Position numbers and translations under genes: made by a program. From NCBI RefSeq assembly GCF_003019035.1, contig NZ_CP027447.1: DNA of 64,000 nt; one strand, given 5' to 3'. Positions 18,194-56,972 of the stretch are shown here, in pieces; the stretch's first letter is position 1; every line of letters begins with the position of its first letter. The notes beneath the pieces were generated by a model. It had not been told where the DNA came from. It did not search any database and worked only from the letters and a program-made list of their open reading frames with translations. Source of the DNA: Escherichia coli. GTDB taxonomy: Bacteria; Pseudomonadota; Gammaproteobacteria; Enterobacterales; Enterobacteriaceae.

Positions 18194-21084
<2,891 letters not shown>

Positions 21085-44747: not shown

Positions 44748-46164
44748 CTATCTGCATGGCGTCGAAACCATTGAGGTGGAAAACGGAGCCCGCCCGGTTA
44801 AAACGGTGAAATCTGCCGTTATTGGCCTGATTGGTACCGCCCCGATGGGGGATGTCAATACGCTGGTACAGTGCCTGTCTGAGAAAGACGCTGCGGCATT
44901 TGGCAGCCAGTTCACCGGCTTTACCATTCCGCAGGCGCTGGATGCGATTTATGACCATGGTGCAGGCACCGTTCTGGTCATTAACGTACTCGATCCGTCT
45001 GTGCATAAAACCGCTGTGGTCAGTGAGAATGTGTCGTTCGACAAGGCGACAGGCAGAGCCCGGCTGGCTAATCCGGTGGTCGCGCAGCTGGTACTGAAAC
45101 CGGACAGCGACGGTCAGCCTTATGTTGAAGGTCAGGACTACTCGCTTGATGCACAGACCGGGGTGATTACTAACCTGGGTAAAAGCATTGCTGCAGATGC
45201 AACGGTGAAGGCCAGCTATAACTATGCTGATCCGACCAAAGTCACCCCGGCTGATATCATCGGTACCGTTAACGCTGCAGGCAACCGTACCGGCATGAAG
45301 CTGCTTAACGACAGTTTTAACCTGTTTGGCTACTTCGCCAAAATCCTGATTGCTCCGGTATTCTGCACCCAGAATAGCGTCTCGGTTGAGCTTATCGCCA
45401 TGGCTGAGAAACTGGGAGCAGTAACCTATATTGATGCGCCGGTTGGTACCACTTTTGCGCAGGCTCTGGCGGGACGTGGCCCGGAAGGCACCATTAACTT
45501 TAATACCAGCTCTGACCGTGTCCGCCTGTGCTACCCGCATGTGAAGGTATATGACCCGGTGACGAACACGGAGCGTCTGGAGCCACTGAGCCAGCGTGCG
45601 GCGGGCCTGCGTGCCAAAGTCGACCTGGACAAAGGGTACTGGTGGTCATCCTCCAATCAGGAAATTCTGGGGATCACCGGCGTGGAGCGCCAGCTGTCGG
45701 CAATGATTGACGATCCGCAGAGCGAGGTGAACCTGCTTAACGAACAGGGGATCACCACGGTATTCAGCAGTTACGGCAGCGGCCTTCGTCTGTGGGGTAA
45801 CCGGACGGCAGCATGGCCAACGGTCACCCATATGCGTAACTTTGAGAACGTTCGCCGCACCGGTGATGTGATCAACGAGTCCATTCGTTACTTCAGCCAG
45901 CAGTACATCGACATGCCGATTACTCAGGCGCTGATTGATGCACTGACGGAGTCGGTCAACGCCTACGGTCGCAAAATGACTGGTGATGGTGCGGTACTGG
46001 GCTTCCGTTGCTGGTTTGATCCGGCCCGCAATCCGGAGACGGAGCTGGCCGCCGGGCACCTGTTGCTGAGCTACAAATATACGCCACCACCGCCGCTGGA
46101 GCGACTGACGTTTGAGACTGAAATCACCTCGGAATACCTGTTAACCCTGAAAGGGGGCAACTGA
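44737..46164 (+). CDS. contractile tail sheath protein (P2 FI-like)
   Basis: MAANYLHGVETIEVENGARPVKTVKSAVIGLIGTAP...LRLWGNRT...YKYTPPPPLERLTF parallels recalled P2 FI. Confidence 0.9.
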   Translation: MAANYLHGVETIEVENGARPVKTVKSAVIGLIGTAPMGDVNTLVQCLSEKDAAAFGSQFTGFTIPQALDAIYDHGAGTVLVINVLDPSVHKTAVVSENVSFDKATGRARLANPVVAQLVLKPDSDGQPYVEGQDYSLDAQTGVITNLGKSIAADATVKASYNYADPTKVTPADIIGTVNAAGNRTGMKLLNDSFNLFGYFAKILIAPVFCTQNSVSVELIAMAEKLGAVTYIDAPVGTTFAQALAGRGPEGTINFNTSSDRVRLCYPHVKVYDPVTNTERLEPLSQRAAGLRAKVDLDKGYWWSSSNQEILGITGVERQLSAMIDDPQSEVNLLNEQGITTVFSSYGSGLRLWGNRTAAWPTVTHMRNFENVRRTGDVINESIRYFSQQYIDMPITQALIDALTESVNAYGRKMTGDGAVLGFRCWFDPARNPETELAAGHLLLSYKYTPPPPLERLTFETEITSEYLLTLKGGN

Positions 46165-46685
46165 TGTCAAAGATTGAGATAAACCGAATCACGAATGCCA
46201 ACATCTATCTGGATGGTACTAACCTGCTGGGACGGGCTGAGGAAGTTAAACTCCCCGATGTCTCCATGATTATGCAGGAGCACAAGGCACTGGGGATGGT
46301 GGGTAAGGTGGAACTCCCGGCTGGTTTTGACAAACTGGAAGGCGAAATCAAATGGAACAGCTTTTACCGCGATGCGATGTTGTCTGCCGCGAACCCGTAC
46401 AGGTCGCTGGCGCTGCAGTGTCGCTCCAGCGTCCAGCGCTACAGCTCGCAGGGGCTGATCGACGAAATCCCGCTGGTCACCTTCCTGACAATTATGTTCA
46501 AGAAGAACCCGCTGGGGACGTTCAAACAGCACGAGAACGCCGAGTTCTCCAGTAGCTTCACCTGCACGTATATCAGACAGGTACTGGATGGTGAAGAGTT
46601 GCTGCAACTGGACTATCTGGCCAACATCTTCCGCGTCGGTGGCGTTGATCAACTGACTGACTATCGAATCAATATCGGGGGCTGA
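46164..46685 (+). CDS. tail tube protein (P2 FII-like)
   Basis: 173 aa. NANIYLDGTNLLGRAEEVKLP...GVDQLTDYRINIGG resembles the FII pattern. Confidence 0.85.
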   Translation: MSKIEINRITNANIYLDGTNLLGRAEEVKLPDVSMIMQEHKALGMVGKVELPAGFDKLEGEIKWNSFYRDAMLSAANPYRSLALQCRSSVQRYSSQGLIDEIPLVTFLTIMFKKNPLGTFKQHENAEFSSSFTCTYIRQVLDGEELLQLDYLANIFRVGGVDQLTDYRINIGG

Positions 46686-46687
46686 CG

Positions 46688-46969
46688 GTGAGTGTTGAAC
46701 TGACTGACAAAGGAGGGCGATGTGCGTCACTGGGCATGTCAAATGGTACGTGGTTTACCCTCCTTGATATTCCGGGGGTGGAGACCCTCTTTAATACCCG
46801 TAAAACCAATGACCCGATTGACTGCACACGTTCAAAGGCCCGCAAACTGGCCGATTTGATTGAAGCATGGGAGCCGCCCGACCAGTGGTTCTCCGGCACC
46901 GGCAACTCTGAGGGAAAGGCGCTTCTCATCGCTTTCCTGCGTAACTGCAAGGGTTTTCGCACTTGCTGA
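46688..46969 (+). CDS. orphan 93-aa protein between the tube and tail-chaperone genes
   Basis: GTG start 2 nt after the tube stop. It contains four Cys. It is followed directly by a terminator. Confidence 0.45.
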   Translation: MSVELTDKGGRCASLGMSNGTWFTLLDIPGVETLFNTRKTNDPIDCTRSKARKLADLIEAWEPPDQWFSGTGNSEGKALLIAFLRNCKGFRTC

Positions 46970-46976
46970 CATCACA

Positions 46977-46998
46977 GGGGCTCCGGCCCCTTCTTTTT
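46977..46998 (+). terminator. rho-independent terminator inside the tail region
   Basis: GGGGC-TCCG-GCCCC followed by TTCTTTTT. Confidence 0.6.
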
Positions 46999-47006
46999 AA
47001 TCCCCT

Positions 47007-47045: not shown

Positions 47046-47066
47046 AATTTACAAAGGAGTATGATC

Positions 47067-47402
47067 ATGTCACAGACCCAGTCCGATACTTTTACGCTGT
47101 CTTATCCTTTCACCACTGCTGCAGGTACCAGAATTGAACAGATTGAACTGAAACGCCTGACAGTAAAAGACCTGAAGCAGGTGCGCAAAATCAACAAAGA
47201 CCCGACAGACTGGGACGAACCACTGATTGCCCGTAGCACCGGTATCCTCCCGGAAGACCTCGATAACATGGATCTTGCCGACTATATGGAGCTGCAGAAA
47301 CGATTTCAGAAAATCACTGGGCTGGGCAAGAGCGACAAAAACACTGATGCAGGCGCAGGGCCTGCTGGCGAGATGGTTCAGGTTTCAACCGGGGGAGATT
47401 GA
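47067..47402 (+). CDS. tail assembly chaperone (P2 gpE-like)
   Basis: MSQTQSDTFTLSYPFTTAAGTRIEQIELKRLTVKDLKQV. SD AAGGAG lies 7 nt upstream of the ATG at 47067. Confidence 0.75.
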   Translation: MSQTQSDTFTLSYPFTTAAGTRIEQIELKRLTVKDLKQVRKINKDPTDWDEPLIARSTGILPEDLDNMDLADYMELQKRFQKITGLGKSDKNTDAGAGPAGEMVQVSTGGD

Positions 47403-47484
47403 TGCCCTCGATACTGACGATCTGGAGATGTGGCTGGAGCAGGCTGAAGAGCAAATCAAAAGCGAGTTCGGCGACAATCAGTAA
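47067..47484 (+). CDS. frameshift-extended chaperone (gpE+E'-like); the shift site is somewhere in 47227..47399
   Basis: An overlapping ORF (47227..47484) in the +1 frame encodes ...WFRFQPGEIDALDTDDLEMWLEQAEEQIK. Fusion of the two frames is inferred by analogy with P2 E/E+E'. Confidence 0.55.
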
Positions 47485-47577
47485 CAACGTATCACTTAAC
47501 AGCCGCCAGTCGCGGCTGTTCTGCATGGGTTTCAGACACTTCCCTTCCGTTTTTTTTGCTTTCAGAGGATAGCCACC

Positions 47578-50043
47578 GTGGCCAGTGAATTTTCAGTCGG
47601 CGTCATTATTGGCGGCATTGTCGGGAGCAGCTTCCGCTCAGCCGTCAGTGGCACCCGACGCGCCCTTGATTCCCTTGGTGATACCTCCCGCCGTCTGCAG
47701 GAACGCCAGAATGCCTTAACCCGGGCAACAGAACGTTATGGTCAACTGGGTTCTTCCCGGATGCAGCATCTCAACAGCGAGTTGCTGCGGGTAAGCCGCA
47801 CCATGGAGCAAATTGAACGTCAGCAGCGCCGTCTGTCAGCAGTATCAGCCACCGGTGATGCGTTGAAGGCTAACCGCCTGGCGCTCTATGGTCAGGGTGC
47901 AGAAACCTATGCTATTGGCAGAACGCTGGGCGCACCGGTCATGGCCTCGGTTAAACAATATGCCTCGTTTGAATCACAGTTGCGGGATATCAGTGTCACA
48001 GGAGACCTGGATGCAAAACAGGAACGTGCAATTGGCCAGGCTATCAGACAGGCCTCGCTGAAGGTTAACCAACTGCAGGAGTCTCTGTTAGGGGGAGTCG
48101 GACAATTAGTTGCTGATGGTATGGCCCCCGAACGGGCAGCAACGTTTGCAGAGATGCTTGGAAAGACCGCTACAGCAACCAAAGCCGATATGACCGACCT
48201 TGCCAAAATGACTTATGCCTTCAGCGATGCACTCAGAATCACTGATGCGAAAGAACTTGAACAGGCGTTTGGTATTGCGGCAACAGGAGCCAAACTTGGG
48301 TCATTTGAGCTGAAGGATATGGCAAAAGCATTACCCGGTATGGCTAAAGCCTTCGCTGCTCGTGGTATTTATGGAAAAGATGCGATTACCCAGATTGTTG
48401 CCAGTCTGGAGGTCGGTAAAGGTAGTGGCTCTGCAGAGGAAGCGGTCACCAATATGTCCAACTGGCTGGCAGCAATGGGCCGCGGAGATACCATCCAGAA
48501 ATATGCTAAAGCCGGGGTGGATTACCAGGGGTCAATGCAGAATTACGTCGCTCAGGGTTTTTCGCAGTACGAAGCTTCACTGATGATTGCCAACCGTTTT
48601 ATCGACAGTAAAGGCAAAGCGTTCTTGCAGCAATGGAAAGCTGCAGGAGCAAGAGGCGATCAGGAAGGTCAGCAGAAACTCATGGAGTCATTTGGTCTGG
48701 CTGAGGTCTTTACCGATATTCAGACTGTCAACCATTTACTGTCAATGCGACAGGGCTGGGATAAATACCTTTCCAGTAAGCAGGAAATGAATGCTCCGGC
48801 TGCAATGTCTACCCTGGATAAGGATGCTGCAAAGCAGAATGATACGCTTGAAGGTCGCTGGCGCAGAATGCAGATCGGCTTTAATGATTCTGCTATCAGC
48901 ATCGGGCAATCCTTGCGTCCGGCTTTGCTCCAGTTGGGTGAAACATTTATTCCTTTAATGGACAGCGTCGGCAAATGGATAGCGGCAAATCCGCAGCTCG
49001 TCAGCAGCACCATAAAGGTTGTGGGCGCATTACTCGCTTTCAGGATGGCCACTATCGGTCTCAAGTTTGGGCTGAATCTCCTTATTTCCCCCTTTGTAAG
49101 CGTCTGGAAAAATGCTGTTTTACTTCGGGCCAACTGGCTTCGTCTGATGCTCGCACTGGGGGAAGGCGGTAAACTCCGCTGGCTGGTGACAGGCTTTGGT
49201 GCCGTCGCCAGAGGAGCCAGAACACTGGGGGGTGTGCTCTCAGGGGGGCTGGTTCGCGGAATTATGAGCGCCGGGCGTGCCGTTCTCTGGATTGGCCGGG
49301 CGCTGATGATGAATCCCATCGGTCTCGCTATCACCGCCGTCGCGGCAGCAGCTTACCTTATCTACCGCAACTGGGGCGCGGTCAGTAGCTGGTTTAAACA
49401 GCGCTGGGCTGACATTCAGGAAGCCTTTAACGGCGGTATCGCGGGAATTGGTAAACTGCTGGTTAACTGGTCTCCGGCAGGTCTGCTTTATAAAGCCTTT
49501 GCGGCTGCGCTGAAATATCTCGGCGTTGATTTGCCGGCGAAATTCACCGACTTCGGTGGTCATCTTATTGACGGGCTGATAAATGGCATCAGAAACAAAT
49601 GGGAGTCACTGAAAACCAGCATAACCGGAATGGGTGACAGCATCAGTGACTGGTTCAGCGAAAAGCTGGGCATCCATTCACCGAGTCGCGTGTTTATAGG
49701 CTTTGGTGACAATATCGCGCAGGGTGCCGCCATTGGCCTGCAACGGACCACTCCGCTTGCTGCACTGGCCGGGCAGCGCCTGGCCGCTGAAATGACACCG
49801 GATGTTCCCCGTATCCCGTCGCCGGAAATCATGGCTGCCGGATATTCAGGCCGTGGCGCAACGGCAACCGGCGGTGGAGCGTCTGGCGGTATCCAGGTCA
49901 GCTTTAATCCTCAGTTTTTCCTCAATGGTAAGGAAACCGCAGCGCCTGCCGGGCTGACTGGTGCCCTGAATATGAGCCTGCATGAGCTGGAAAAAATGCT
50001 GGAGCGTCTGCTGGCTCAGAAACAACGTAAGGAGTACAGCTGA
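47578..50043 (+). CDS. tail tape measure protein
   Basis: 821 aa, alpha-helical and Ala/Gly-rich with hydrophobic central segments. GTG start. Confidence 0.85.
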   Translation: MASEFSVGVIIGGIVGSSFRSAVSGTRRALDSLGDTSRRLQERQNALTRATERYGQLGSSRMQHLNSELLRVSRTMEQIERQQRRLSAVSATGDALKANRLALYGQGAETYAIGRTLGAPVMASVKQYASFESQLRDISVTGDLDAKQERAIGQAIRQASLKVNQLQESLLGGVGQLVADGMAPERAATFAEMLGKTATATKADMTDLAKMTYAFSDALRITDAKELEQAFGIAATGAKLGSFELKDMAKALPGMAKAFAARGIYGKDAITQIVASLEVGKGSGSAEEAVTNMSNWLAAMGRGDTIQKYAKAGVDYQGSMQNYVAQGFSQYEASLMIANRFIDSKGKAFLQQWKAAGARGDQEGQQKLMESFGLAEVFTDIQTVNHLLSMRQGWDKYLSSKQEMNAPAAMSTLDKDAAKQNDTLEGRWRRMQIGFNDSAISIGQSLRPALLQLGETFIPLMDSVGKWIAANPQLVSSTIKVVGALLAFRMATIGLKFGLNLLISPFVSVWKNAVLLRANWLRLMLALGEGGKLRWLVTGFGAVARGARTLGGVLSGGLVRGIMSAGRAVLWIGRALMMNPIGLAITAVAAAAYLIYRNWGAVSSWFKQRWADIQEAFNGGIAGIGKLLVNWSPAGLLYKAFAAALKYLGVDLPAKFTDFGGHLIDGLINGIRNKWESLKTSITGMGDSISDWFSEKLGIHSPSRVFIGFGDNIAQGAAIGLQRTTPLAALAGQRLAAEMTPDVPRIPSPEIMAAGYSGRGATATGGGASGGIQVSFNPQFFLNGKETAAPAGLTGALNMSLHELEKMLERLLAQKQRKEYS

Positions 50044-54876: not shown

Positions 54877-55845
54877 ATGGCAAATCTACCCGAAACCCCG
54901 CAGTGGGAAAGCGGCATCTACCAGATTGAGGTCTCTGACCCCGTTCTGGGCGGACCTGACGGAATTTCTAACCGCCAGGCTAAACAACTGGCCAGCCGAA
55001 CGTCATACCTCAAACAGAAGGTCGAAAAAAGCGGAACAGACCTGGCTGCACATATCGCGGCAGTTGACCCGCATACCCAGTACGCGACGAAAGCCAGTCC
55101 GACATTCACCGGCACACCAACAGCACCTACACCTGCAAATGGTGATAACAGCAAAAAGCTGGCGACGACGGAGTTTGTGGCCAAAGCACTTGCGGCACTT
55201 GCAGGCAGCGCCCCTGAGACACTGGATACGCTTAAAGAGCTGGCTGACGCTCTCGGTAATGATCCAAACTTTGCGACTACGGTACTGAACAAGCTGGCGG
55301 AAAAGCTGGCTAAAGACCAGAACGGCGCAGATATTCCTGAGCCTGCGCTGTTTGTCAAAAACCTTGGTTTGGGGGAAGGCTCTGCACTGCCCGTTGGTGT
55401 GCCCGTTCCGTGGCCCTTAGCAACACCACCAACGGGCTGGCTGAAATGTAACGGTGCAGCATTTTCTTCTGAAATGTACCCCAAACTGGCAAAAGCCTAC
55501 CCCGCGAATAAATTACCGGATTTACGCGGAGAATTTATCCGTGGCTGGGATGATGGGCGAGGAATTGATGCGGCACGCGCTTTATTGAGCATTCAAAACG
55601 GGATGTTGGAAAAACACCGCCATATTGTTGTAGCTAACGATGGATATGACACAAAAGATGAATGGGAGTTGGCTACGATTTTCAAAAAAACATATACACA
55701 AGGCAGGGGGCTTGATGCCACAAATACAGGAGGGAGTTTGACTCCATCACCAACGCTTCATTCACGAGGAAGTATTGGTAACACAGGTGGTAGTGAAACC
55801 CGCCCCCGCAATATTGCATTTAACTATATCGTGAGGGCGGCTTAG
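54877..55845 (+). CDS. tail fibre, currently expressed form (constant N-terminus plus variable tip A)
   Basis: 322 aa. The N-terminus is MANLPETPQWESGIYQIEVSDPVLGGPDGISNRQAKQLA. The gene crosses the left inversion site at 55352..55377. The tip ends ETRPRNIAFNYIVRAA. Confidence 0.85.
   Translation: MANLPETPQWESGIYQIEVSDPVLGGPDGISNRQAKQLASRTSYLKQKVEKSGTDLAAHIAAVDPHTQYATKASPTFTGTPTAPTPANGDNSKKLATTEFVAKALAALAGSAPETLDTLKELADALGNDPNFATTVLNKLAEKLAKDQNGADIPEPALFVKNLGLGEGSALPVGVPVPWPLATPPTGWLKCNGAAFSSEMYPKLAKAYPANKLPDLRGEFIRGWDDGRGIDAARALLSIQNGMLEKHRHIVVANDGYDTKDEWELATIFKKTYTQGRGLDATNTGGSLTPSPTLHSRGSIGNTGGSETRPRNIAFNYIVRAA
55352..55377. repeat. left inversion crossover site (gix/hix-like)
   Basis: TTGTCAAAAACCTTGGTTTGGGGGAA. 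Compare the recalled hix reverse strand TTATCAAAAACCTTGGTTTTCAAGAA. Confidence 0.75.
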
Positions 55846-56469: not shown

Positions 56470-56972
56470 TAAGTAGCCCTTACAATATAGTTAAACGCAA
56501 TATTACGGGGGCGGTTTTCCGTTCCTGTATTCCCTCCGTTGGCACCTAATCTATAAACACCACGAGTGCCAATAGCACGTAGTGAAGATGGAACTTTTAC
56601 ACCTGACTCATCTGTTTTAACAATCCCGCCATCACCGTATGTAGCCAGTATACCAGGGTTTGTTCCTGCACGGGTGCTATTTGCGGCAAGCCCTTCACCA
56701 GTCCATAACTCCATATAGTGAATATGATCTATAACCGAATGTGATTGTGCATTAAGCAAGGAACGCCCTGAATCAATTCCCCGCCCGTCATCCCAGCCGC
56801 GAATAAACTCACCCCGTAAATCCGGTAATTTATTCGCGGGGTAGGCTTTTGCCAGTTTGGGGTACATTTCAGAAGAAAATGCTGCACCGTTACATTTCAG
56901 CCACCCTGCTGGCGGTGTGGCTGAGGGCCACGGAACGGGCACACCAACGGGCAGTGCAGAGCCTTCCCCCAA
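56469..56972 (-). CDS. alternative tail-fibre tip B cassette (silent in this orientation)
   Basis: GEGSALPVGVPVPWPSATPPAGWLKCNGAAFSSEMYPKLAKAYPANKLPDLRGEFIRGWDDGRGID closely matches tip A residues, then diverges. It has no start context of its own. Confidence 0.75.
   Translation of the reverse strand: MGEGSALPVGVPVPWPSATPPAGWLKCNGAAFSSEMYPKLAKAYPANKLPDLRGEFIRGWDDGRGIDSGRSLLNAQSHSVIDHIHYMELWTGEGLAANSTRAGTNPGILATYGDGGIVKTDESGVKVPSSLRAIGTRGVYRLGANGGNTGTENRPRNIAFNYIVRAT

Follow-up and report, generated by a model that had tools for sequence, protein, structure and literature searches.

A proposed +1 frameshift site in the gene for the tail assembly chaperone of a BcepMu-like Escherichia coli prophage

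The 64,000-nucleotide stretch of Escherichia coli DNA analysed here (contig NZ_CP027447.1; hereafter the window) contains a BcepMu-like transposable prophage, which combines a Mu-type head with a P2-type tail. The tail assembly chaperone pair of this prophage is homologous to E and E+E' of phage P2. The first open reading frame (ORF) of the pair, referred to here as E, was taken to start at ATG 47067, as is done by the Prokaryotic Genome Annotation Pipeline (PGAP) in near-identical E. coli records; ATG 47061 is an alternative. Its codons start at positions divisible by 3 (frame 0), its stop codon is the TGA at 47400-47402, and residues 8-82 of its product match Pfam Phage_TAC_7 with E=4e-22 and 78.4 bits (cut-off 25). 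Homologues of this protein carry the names 'phage tail assembly protein' or FluMu gp41. A second frame (position mod 3 = 1, the +1 frame) reads ...LLARWFRFQPGEIDALDTDDLEMWLEQAEEQIKSEFGDNQ and ends with the TAA at 47482-47484. The passage from E to this extension requires a +1 or a -2 shift within the overlap of the two frames, 47227-47402, and a scan of frame 0 in that overlap found no X_XXY_YYZ heptamer. The original prediction, made from the letters of the window, had given the same coordinates and frames for the E ORF and for the extension open from 47227. It had also held that the fusion needs +1 or -2 instead of the canonical -1 and that the overlap is free of -1 heptamers, and our scan agreed with it on each of these points. 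We propose that the two frames are probably joined by a +1 slip at CGA-UUU-C, giving an E+E' protein of 138 amino acids. The coordinates of all features are collected in Table 1.

To follow the two frames through evolution, two sets of relatives were assembled. For the first, annotated records, GTDB genomes and IMG/VR supplied 121 related loci (122 with the window), in each of which the chaperone domain and the extension were placed by tblastn. The second, more distant set was seeded with BcepMu, Ralstonia, Pseudomonas and Salmonella homologues and comprised 68 loci. The extension was located in this set with a hidden Markov model (HMM) built from 7 family members, and it was detectable in 65 of them. 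Removal of duplicates left 86 unique enteric and 59 unique distant sequences, or 143 when pooled; these sequences are phylogenetically related, so that all counts given below overstate the number of independent observations. The extension was in the +1 frame relative to E in 120 of the 122 loci of the first set and in all 65 of the second, 185 of 187 in all. The two exceptions were a P2-like Pasteurella phage, in which the relation is -1, and one locus (L026) with a deletion of 1 nucleotide. Since the +1 relation recurs in 185 of 187 loci, sequencing error as the source of the two-frame arrangement in the window is excluded on comparative grounds, and so is chance. The same recurrence disposes of the case that the original prediction had named against itself, namely a sequencing or assembly error in a run of G residues that only mimics the frame relation. 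In L026 (Apirhabdus apintestini, CP138906), the deletion lies about 13 nucleotides upstream of TTT_C and brings the extension into frame with the chaperone domain. Only the fused protein could be made from this locus, which may represent a real variant, a pseudogene or an error of assembly.

The stop codons of the relatives confine the place at which the frame must change. The last stop in the +1 frame ends 8 nucleotides before a TTT codon in loci from Ralstonia, Pseudomonas and several other lineages (L005, L006, L141, L145-151 and L185-193), and frame 0 is closed by a stop 24, 27 or 33 nucleotides after the same TTT in L142, L183/L184 and L088, respectively. Together, these stops bracket the shift to about 32 nucleotides, from -8 to +24 around TTT. 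Inside the bracket, TTT followed by C was found in all 86 unique enteric sequences and in 54 of the 59 unique distant ones (138 of 143 pooled), a range that extends from Enterobacterales to Burkholderia, Pseudomonas and Ralstonia. Each distant sequence with TTT_C has exactly one in-frame copy in the permitted interval, and the in-frame TTT_C is the sole slippery element that the sequences have in common within the bracket. It occurs in at least eight codon contexts: AAA-CGA-TTT-CAG in enterics, TCC-TTT-CGC in BcepMu, GCC-TTT-CGC, GTG-TTT-CGG in Pseudomonas phages, TTT-TTT-CGT, TGT-TTT-CGC, CGA-TTT-CTG of the Ralstonia type, and CGA-TTT-CGC. The residue after Phe is variable (Q, H, R or L), and the first base of its codon is always C. 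Despite the kinship of the sequences, the eight contexts indicate several deep lineages.

The codons at this site are conserved at the nucleotide level. The per-site entropies from 47301 to 47307 are 0.09, 0.09, 0.22, 0, 0, 0 and 0, and neighbouring third positions of frame 0 have values of 0.8-1.2. All 86 unique enteric sequences encode Phe80 by TTT, and the other Phe codons of E are divided between TTT (105) and TTC (81). The preceding Arg79 is encoded by CGA in 83 of 85 unique enteric sequences and in 114 of 138 sequences overall; TCC, GCC or GTG takes its place elsewhere, so the CGA is lineage-specific. As a control, the invariant Arg at 47154 is encoded by CGC in 58 sequences, CGT in 19, CGG in 7 and CGA in 2. 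All other conserved residues of E have mixed synonymous codons.

The coding phase of the alignment changes at the same place. Variability is highest at the third positions of frame 0 as far as about 47300, and at those of the +1 frame from about 47313 onwards, with the best change point at 47310. We also calculated for each frame the synonymous fraction, that is, the share of single-step codon changes that are synonymous in that frame. Between 47308 and 47349 it was 0.37 in the +1 frame, 0.25 in frame 0 and 0.22 in the -1 frame, which served as a control. In the segment past the E stop where only the +1 frame can code (47403-47481), the values were 0.38, 0.19 and 0.21, respectively. Directly behind TTT_C, the +1 fraction matches the value of the segment that codes in the +1 frame alone, and frame 0 is at background. 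A Trp codon of the +1 frame, TGG, fills the column at 47323-47325 in all 84 unique enteric sequences that are aligned there, and the frame-0 reading of the same bases varies (Leu, Met or Val, then Gly, Ala or Asp). The alignment is offset in L005 and L006, where the Trp comes 4-6 codons after the Phe; in BcepMu it comes 3 codons after.

A +1 shift at TTT_C yields a protein of 138 residues, MSQ...MELQKRF-RKSLGWARATKTLMQAQGLLARWFRFQPGEIDALDTDDLEMWLEQAEEQIKSEFGDNQ, made of residues 1-80 of E and 58 residues of the extension. The fusion matches Phage_TAC_7 at residues 8-84 with 83.5 bits, 5 bits above the unshifted E. Its residues 100-132 reached 16.4-17.5 bits against Pfam Phage_P2_GpE, below the gathering score of 23. 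The motif LLARWFRFQP within this part aligns with positions 4-13 of Phage_P2_GpE and with P2 E' (VAVIFHWPPSEL), to which BLASTP gave a match of 27 residues with E=0.002, and the pattern F-x-[FW]-x-P-[SG]-E-[IL]...W is common to the extension in the window, P2 and the Pasteurella phage.

Table 1. Positions of the chaperone frames, the proposed shift site and associated features in the window
Feature	Position	Strand	Basis or remark
Tail tube gene, upstream partner	46164-46685	+	Pfam Phage_tube, E=3e-53
Shine-Dalgarno sequence AAGGAG	47054-47059	+	Read from sequence; 7 nt 5' of ATG 47067
E-like tail assembly chaperone ORF, short product, frame 0, 111 aa	47067-47402	+	Pfam Phage_TAC_7
Open +1 frame, full extent	47227-47484	+	TGA 47224 upstream; TAA 47482-47484 ends the frame
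Proposed +1 shift site CGA_TTT_C: E-site CGA (Arg79), P-site TTT (Phe80), then C	47301-47307	+	Conservation, stop codons, phase switch
E' extension read behind the proposed shift, 58 aa, then stop TAA 47482-47484	47308-47484	+	+1-frame translation, synonymous fractions
Invariant +1-frame Trp codon TGG, 19 nt after TTT	47323-47325	+	Alignment of relatives
A5 run in GAC-AAA-AAC, feature of the window lineage	47337-47341	+	Not conserved
GpE-like domain (LARWFRFQPGEIDALDTDDLEMWLEQAEEQIK), +1 frame	47365-47463	+	Pfam Phage_P2_GpE, BLASTP, HMM
G5 run in ACC-GGG-GGA-GAT-TGA, proposed by the original prediction	47391-47395	+	By-product of +1 codons CCG-GGG-GAG (Pro-Gly-Glu)
Tape measure protein gene, downstream partner	47578-50043	+	Pfam PhageMin_Tail, E=8e-16; same annotation in relatives

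On the basis of these comparisons, we propose the following mechanism. Most ribosomes would translate the short E protein to its end. In a minority, the peptidyl-tRNA-Phe in the P site would slip by +1 from UUU (47304-47306) to UUC (47305-47307), and translation would continue in the +1 frame from the AGA at 47308 to the TAA, so that the E+E' product would carry the GpE-like domain. The re-pairing would be favoured because UUC is a better partner than UUU for the single tRNA-Phe (anticodon GAA). The slip may also be aided by the near-invariant CGA in the E site, where the I:A wobble of this codon may make pairing weaker; CGA is rare in E. coli, with 3.8 occurrences per 1000 codons (table in PMC3498833). 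A -2 event at TTT_C appears implausible, since neither TTT onto GAT nor CAG onto TTC would re-pair. An upstream Shine-Dalgarno-like stimulator was considered and rejected; such an element is present only in the Pseudomonas lineage (GAGGTG-TTT-C) and absent elsewhere.

Several observations weigh against a programmed slip at TTT_C. One IMG/VR lineage of five unique loci (L152, L153, L155, L156 and L161) has GTG-TTG-CGG-GAA where its relatives have GTG-TTT-CGG-GAA, and it keeps both the +1 arrangement and a tight stop-codon bracket, with a +1-frame stop 4 codons upstream. Re-pairing of tRNA-Leu at TTG-CGG would be poor, and CGG_G is a possible alternative site in these loci. The window itself holds three other in-frame candidates for a +1 slip, AAA_A at 47310, AAA_A at 47337 and GGG_G at 47391. 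No conserved RNA structure was found when region 47285-47410 of the window and 16 diverse relatives were folded as single sequences; z was about 0, no helix was shared, and the predicted folds differed between relatives. The frame-0 codon in the A site is not a slow one either: CAG (79), CAA (21), CGC (16), CGG (9) and CTG (8) are mostly common in E. coli. Finally, Phe80 is conserved in the chaperone domain, so part of its conservation is at the protein level, although such a constraint leaves the fixed TTT codon and the fixed C that follows it unexplained.

UUU-pyrimidine sites are reportedly prone to +1 shifts in E. coli, as Fu and Parker in 1994 and Schwartz and Curran in 1997 are said to have found. 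In the influenza PA-X gene, a P-site +1 slip on UUU_C was demonstrated by mass spectrometry and mutagenesis, the E-site codon modulated it, and a class of UUU_C +1 sites was predicted (PMC3498833). In an E. coli cell-free assay, UUU and AAA were among the most shift-prone P-site codons (bioRxiv 10.1101/2025.10.02.679949). A low efficiency is expected for the site in the window because conserved structure, an internal Shine-Dalgarno sequence and a slow A-site codon are all lacking. Like other chaperone frameshifts, it would probably operate at a few per cent, in keeping with the need for a ratio of chaperone to fusion like that in lambda or Mu; the efficiency of the Mu shift is about 2% (PMC3498833), and the lambda G:GT ratio is about 30:1 (PMC5009743).

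The original prediction had placed the shift farther downstream, at the G5 run, where tRNA-Gly, slipping either by +1 on GGG_G or, as in Mu, by -2 from GGA onto GGG, would give a protein of 139 or 140 residues, ...VSTG(G)EIDALD.... The idea is a reasonable one. Re-pairing would be perfect, and the experimentally verified -2 site of Mu is also a G5 run, CGG-GGG-CGA (record note and sequence); however, the data do not extend this precedent to the family of the window. Frame 0 has already stopped before the position of the run in 58 of 120 close loci, or 43 of 86 unique sequences. In the KP12 type, for example, frame 0 reads ...GAG-GTG-GTT-TAG-ATT, with a stop 21 nucleotides before that of the window and upstream of the run, and the two substitutions behind this stop (TTC to TTT and AGG to AGA) leave the residues of the +1 frame unchanged. 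Of the 86 unique enteric sequences, 54 have the run, which is restricted to those with Pro-Gly-Glu in the +1 frame; the other 32 have Pro-Ser-Glu (CCG-AGT-GAG) instead, and no G5 run was found in the BcepMu, Pseudomonas and Ralstonia relatives. It falls inside the conserved GpE-like domain (LLARWFRFQPGE), where codon substitutions are synonymous only in the +1 frame. A shift at the run would remove LLARWFRFQP, about 10 positions of this domain, which lies upstream of the run and of which the original prediction had itself counted WFRFQP in the conserved extension. This segment is under +1-frame constraint, with synonymous fractions between 47350 and 47399 of 0.63 in the +1 frame vs 0.16 in frame 0. 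The second Arg of the motif is kept through AGG, AGA, CGG and CGC, which in frame 0 become Gln, a stop, Pro or Ser. The tail of frame 0 in the same interval (...GAGPAGEMVQVSTGGD) seems conserved in its amino acids across relatives (GAGAAGEVVPVSAE), and this is a by-product of the +1-frame constraint, its own synonymous fraction being at background. Hence, a shift at the G5 run is very unlikely. Comparison of the overlap among relatives bore out the +1 frame of the extension; what it found conserved was not the run but CGA-TTT-C, about 85 nucleotides upstream and within the interval that the original prediction had flagged.

The two AAA_A sites, 47310-47313 (CAG-AAA-ATC) and 47337-47340 (GAC-AAA-AAC), could serve for a lineage-specific +1 slip of tRNA-Lys. 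Each is an in-frame XXX_X tetramer on which re-pairing would be perfect, tRNA-Lys is well known to be shifty on AAA, AAA was among the most shift-prone P-site codons in the cell-free assay, and the site at 47310 falls within the stop-codon bracket. However, the latter is confined to the 'FRKS' sub-lineage, and the site at 47337 is downstream of the earliest frame-0 stop, that of L088. The A5 run that contains the site at 47337 was rejected as a shift site: its region reads GACAAAAACA in only 6 of the 86 unique sequences and GACGAAAACG, AACCAGGGCG or similar in the others, and it lies downstream of the invariant +1-frame Trp. We regard a slip on either AAA_A as unlikely. It is quite improbable that there is no frameshift at all and that the GpE-like ORF is a separate gene of 45 residues starting at ATG 47347. 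PGAP has called such a coding sequence in two listed genomes and an ATG is found at that place in many close relatives, but there is no Shine-Dalgarno sequence at a suitable distance from it, and the ATG is not conserved, the PhiKM type having ACG. In L006, L020, L021, L081 and L095, the +1 frame has no ATG, GTG or TTG ahead of the GpE motif. The +1 coding signal and the invariant Trp begin about 40 nucleotides upstream of ATG 47347, and in the homologous P2 system the extension is made as a fusion only.

It is highly improbable that the frame change is made by RNA polymerase slippage or by an insertion or deletion in the DNA (phase variation, pseudogene or assembly error). Databases do hold apparent in-frame fusions of E and E' (proteins P0010, P0011, P0013, P0065 and P0106, besides locus L026). 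Productive transcriptional slippage needs about 6-9 A or T residues, and the longest runs here, A5 and G5, and the T3 at the conserved site are too short. The fusions are at scattered positions, those examined carry other homopolymer insertions or deletions, and the two-frame arrangement is kept in 185 of the 187 loci with both parts. Database proteins of 138 residues were considered as natural evidence of the junction and rejected, their fusion points being scattered over the G run, the A run and places far upstream. The Logan contigs that encode P0011 (L194-L197) have G4 for G5 along with other homopolymer differences, which suggests that the G4 contigs, seemingly fused at the G run, reflect read errors and that predicted 'fusion' proteins in large collections can mislead.

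The proposed slip at CGA-UUU-C can be compared with known frameshift systems, among them that of P2. The chaperone proteins of P2 and the window are homologous, with Phage_TAC_7 followed by a Phage_P2_GpE-like extension, and are encoded between the tube (FII) and tape measure (T) genes. In P2 E+E', TAC_7 covers residues 7-85, the shift comes after residue 85 and GpE covers 104-139. In P2, as for the shift proposed in the window, the change of frame is at the C-terminal edge of TAC_7 and is followed by a linker of 17-19 residues and then by the GpE or GpE-like domain, and the fusions are of similar length (142 residues in P2, 138 in the window). Neither has a downstream RNA structure (PMC3091744). 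The two differ in the slip: P2 has a -1 tandem slip on the heptanucleotide T-TTT-TTG, which P2-like phages keep as TTTTTTG (PMC3091744), whereas the window would use a +1 slip of a single P-site tRNA on UUU_C. The -1 shift of P2, stated in the original prediction, was confirmed by the P2 record, which annotates a -1 site at 19685 (G-TTT-TTT-G). The tail of the short product behind the shift site is also different, with 6 residues in P2 and 31 low-complexity residues in the window. We considered whether the slippery Phe codon is the same one in P2 and the window and rejected this, since the two are about 3 residues apart in the Pfam alignment; the domain boundary is shared and the codon is not.

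Mu gp41, also a transposable-phage tail chaperone, has its extension in the same relative frame (+1, equivalent to -2), and it matches TAC_7 weakly, with 24.7 bits just below the 25-bit cut-off. A -2 frameshift in Mu gp41 was reportedly described by Xu, Hendrix and Duda in 2004. The Mu shift differs in being a -2 event on a G5 run 8 codons before the stop. In addition, gp41 matches Pfam Gp41_Mu (119 bits), whereas the window protein does not, and the Mu extension is not GpE-like. The lambda gpG/gpGT pair occupies the same genomic position and consists of a short chaperone and a rare frameshifted fusion, neither of which is in the virion (PMC5009743); it has no sequence similarity to the window proteins and uses a -1 shift on G-GGA-AAG. 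As for the slip, the site in influenza PA-X (UCC_UUU_CGU) resembles the proposed one in having UUU in the P site followed by C and an E-site codon conserved beyond the needs of the protein, and BcepMu and its closest relatives have a nearly identical nonamer, UCC_UUU_CGC. It differs in being read by a eukaryotic ribosome and in its A-site CGU, which is rare in the hosts, whereas the window type usually has the common CAG in the A site and, in enterics, CGA in the E site. [quoted passage not shown]

The surroundings of the chaperone pair are those of a P2-like tail cluster. The gene order (sheath, tube, a 93-residue ORF, E, tape measure, gpU, X, D) follows the FI-FII-E-T-U-D order of P2, so that the chaperone sits between the tube and tape measure genes with one additional ORF after the tube gene. 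This ORF (46688-46969) is without a counterpart in P2 and has a weak match to Pfam DUF7739 (25.8 bits, cut-off 27); its position is conserved in PhiKM, KP12 and E. coli prophages. A terminator-like hairpin (46976-47001, AGGGGC-TCCG-GCCCCT followed by TCTTTTT) was observed between it and the E gene. Within the single late tail operon that is expected here, this hairpin might attenuate transcription into E, T and the later tail genes. A perfect 7-bp hairpin (47500-47518, CAGCCGC-CAGTC-GCGGCTG) is located between the E' stop and the tape measure gene. It is kept with small changes in PhiKM-type relatives, has a poor T tract and was not called by a terminator scan.

The DNA shares 99.8% identity with an E. 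coli A31 prophage, in the neighbourhood of which a P2-like tail is combined with head genes and a transposase of Mu-like type. Related copies are found in 636 of 5,426 complete E. coli genomes; among named phages, PhiKM (genus Bcepmuvirus) and a KP12 clone are nearest. Two pairs of inverted repeats, 55500-55569 with 56772-56841 (70 nucleotides, 90%) and 55795-55844 with 56470-56519 (50 nucleotides, 86%), flank oppositely oriented ORFs of the tail-fibre region, and the A31 prophage has a recombinase gene beside its tail-fibre genes. The repeats are consistent with an invertible host-range switch like the G segment of Mu.

Annotation of the chaperone locus varies. PGAP labels the first ORF 'phage tail assembly protein'. 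In 2 of 15 listed E. coli genomes, it takes the ATG equivalent to 47347 as the start of a separate 45-residue 'GpE family phage tail protein'; in the other 13, the GpE-like ORF is unannotated, and a ribosomal-slippage join is given in none of the 15. Its treatment thus differs among nearly identical prophages (E. coli RefSeq records H4-H18). In the BcepMu reference record (L123, AY539836, 4603-5364), gp42 and gp43 are labelled as a lambda G/T-like slippage pair, and gp41, the E homologue, is a 'conserved protein'. The gp42 ORF is the GpE-like +1 ORF overlapping gp41, with the junction TCC-TTT-CGC. BcepMu gp43 resembles a GC-rich frame-0 ORF, to which the window has no counterpart.

To our knowledge, frameshifted tail chaperones are near-universal in long-tailed phages, where the ratio of the two products controls tail assembly, and almost all of those described use -1, the -2 shift of Mu being a notable exception. 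Shifts in tail chaperone genes are recognised in the literature as -1, -2 or +1 (PMC5009743; PMC2628397), and in the KS10 paper a slippery site for a gp41-like gene could not be found. In our literature search, no +1 UUU_C site was found to have been described for the P2-E family, which is weak evidence given the incomplete coverage of the search. We lean towards the view that BcepMu-like myophages of Gamma- and Betaproteobacteria share an undescribed bacterial class of +1 frameshift. This would be a bare slip on UUU_C preceded by CGA, UCC or GUG and tuned by that E-site codon, with neither a stop codon nor a rare codon, and without RNA structure or an internal Shine-Dalgarno sequence. At the same domain boundary, it would have taken the place of the P2-type -1 heptamer, and it would be the bacterial counterpart of the PA-X site. 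Predictors that seek -1 heptamers or +1 motifs coupled to rare codons would miss such a UUU_C site in annotation. If the proposal is true, homologues of P2 E/E' with a minimal UUU_C would offer a natural bacterial system, amenable to simple E. coli reporters, for the study of stimulator-free +1 slippage and E-site effects, and the direction of a programmed frameshift would have flipped during the evolution of one protein family.

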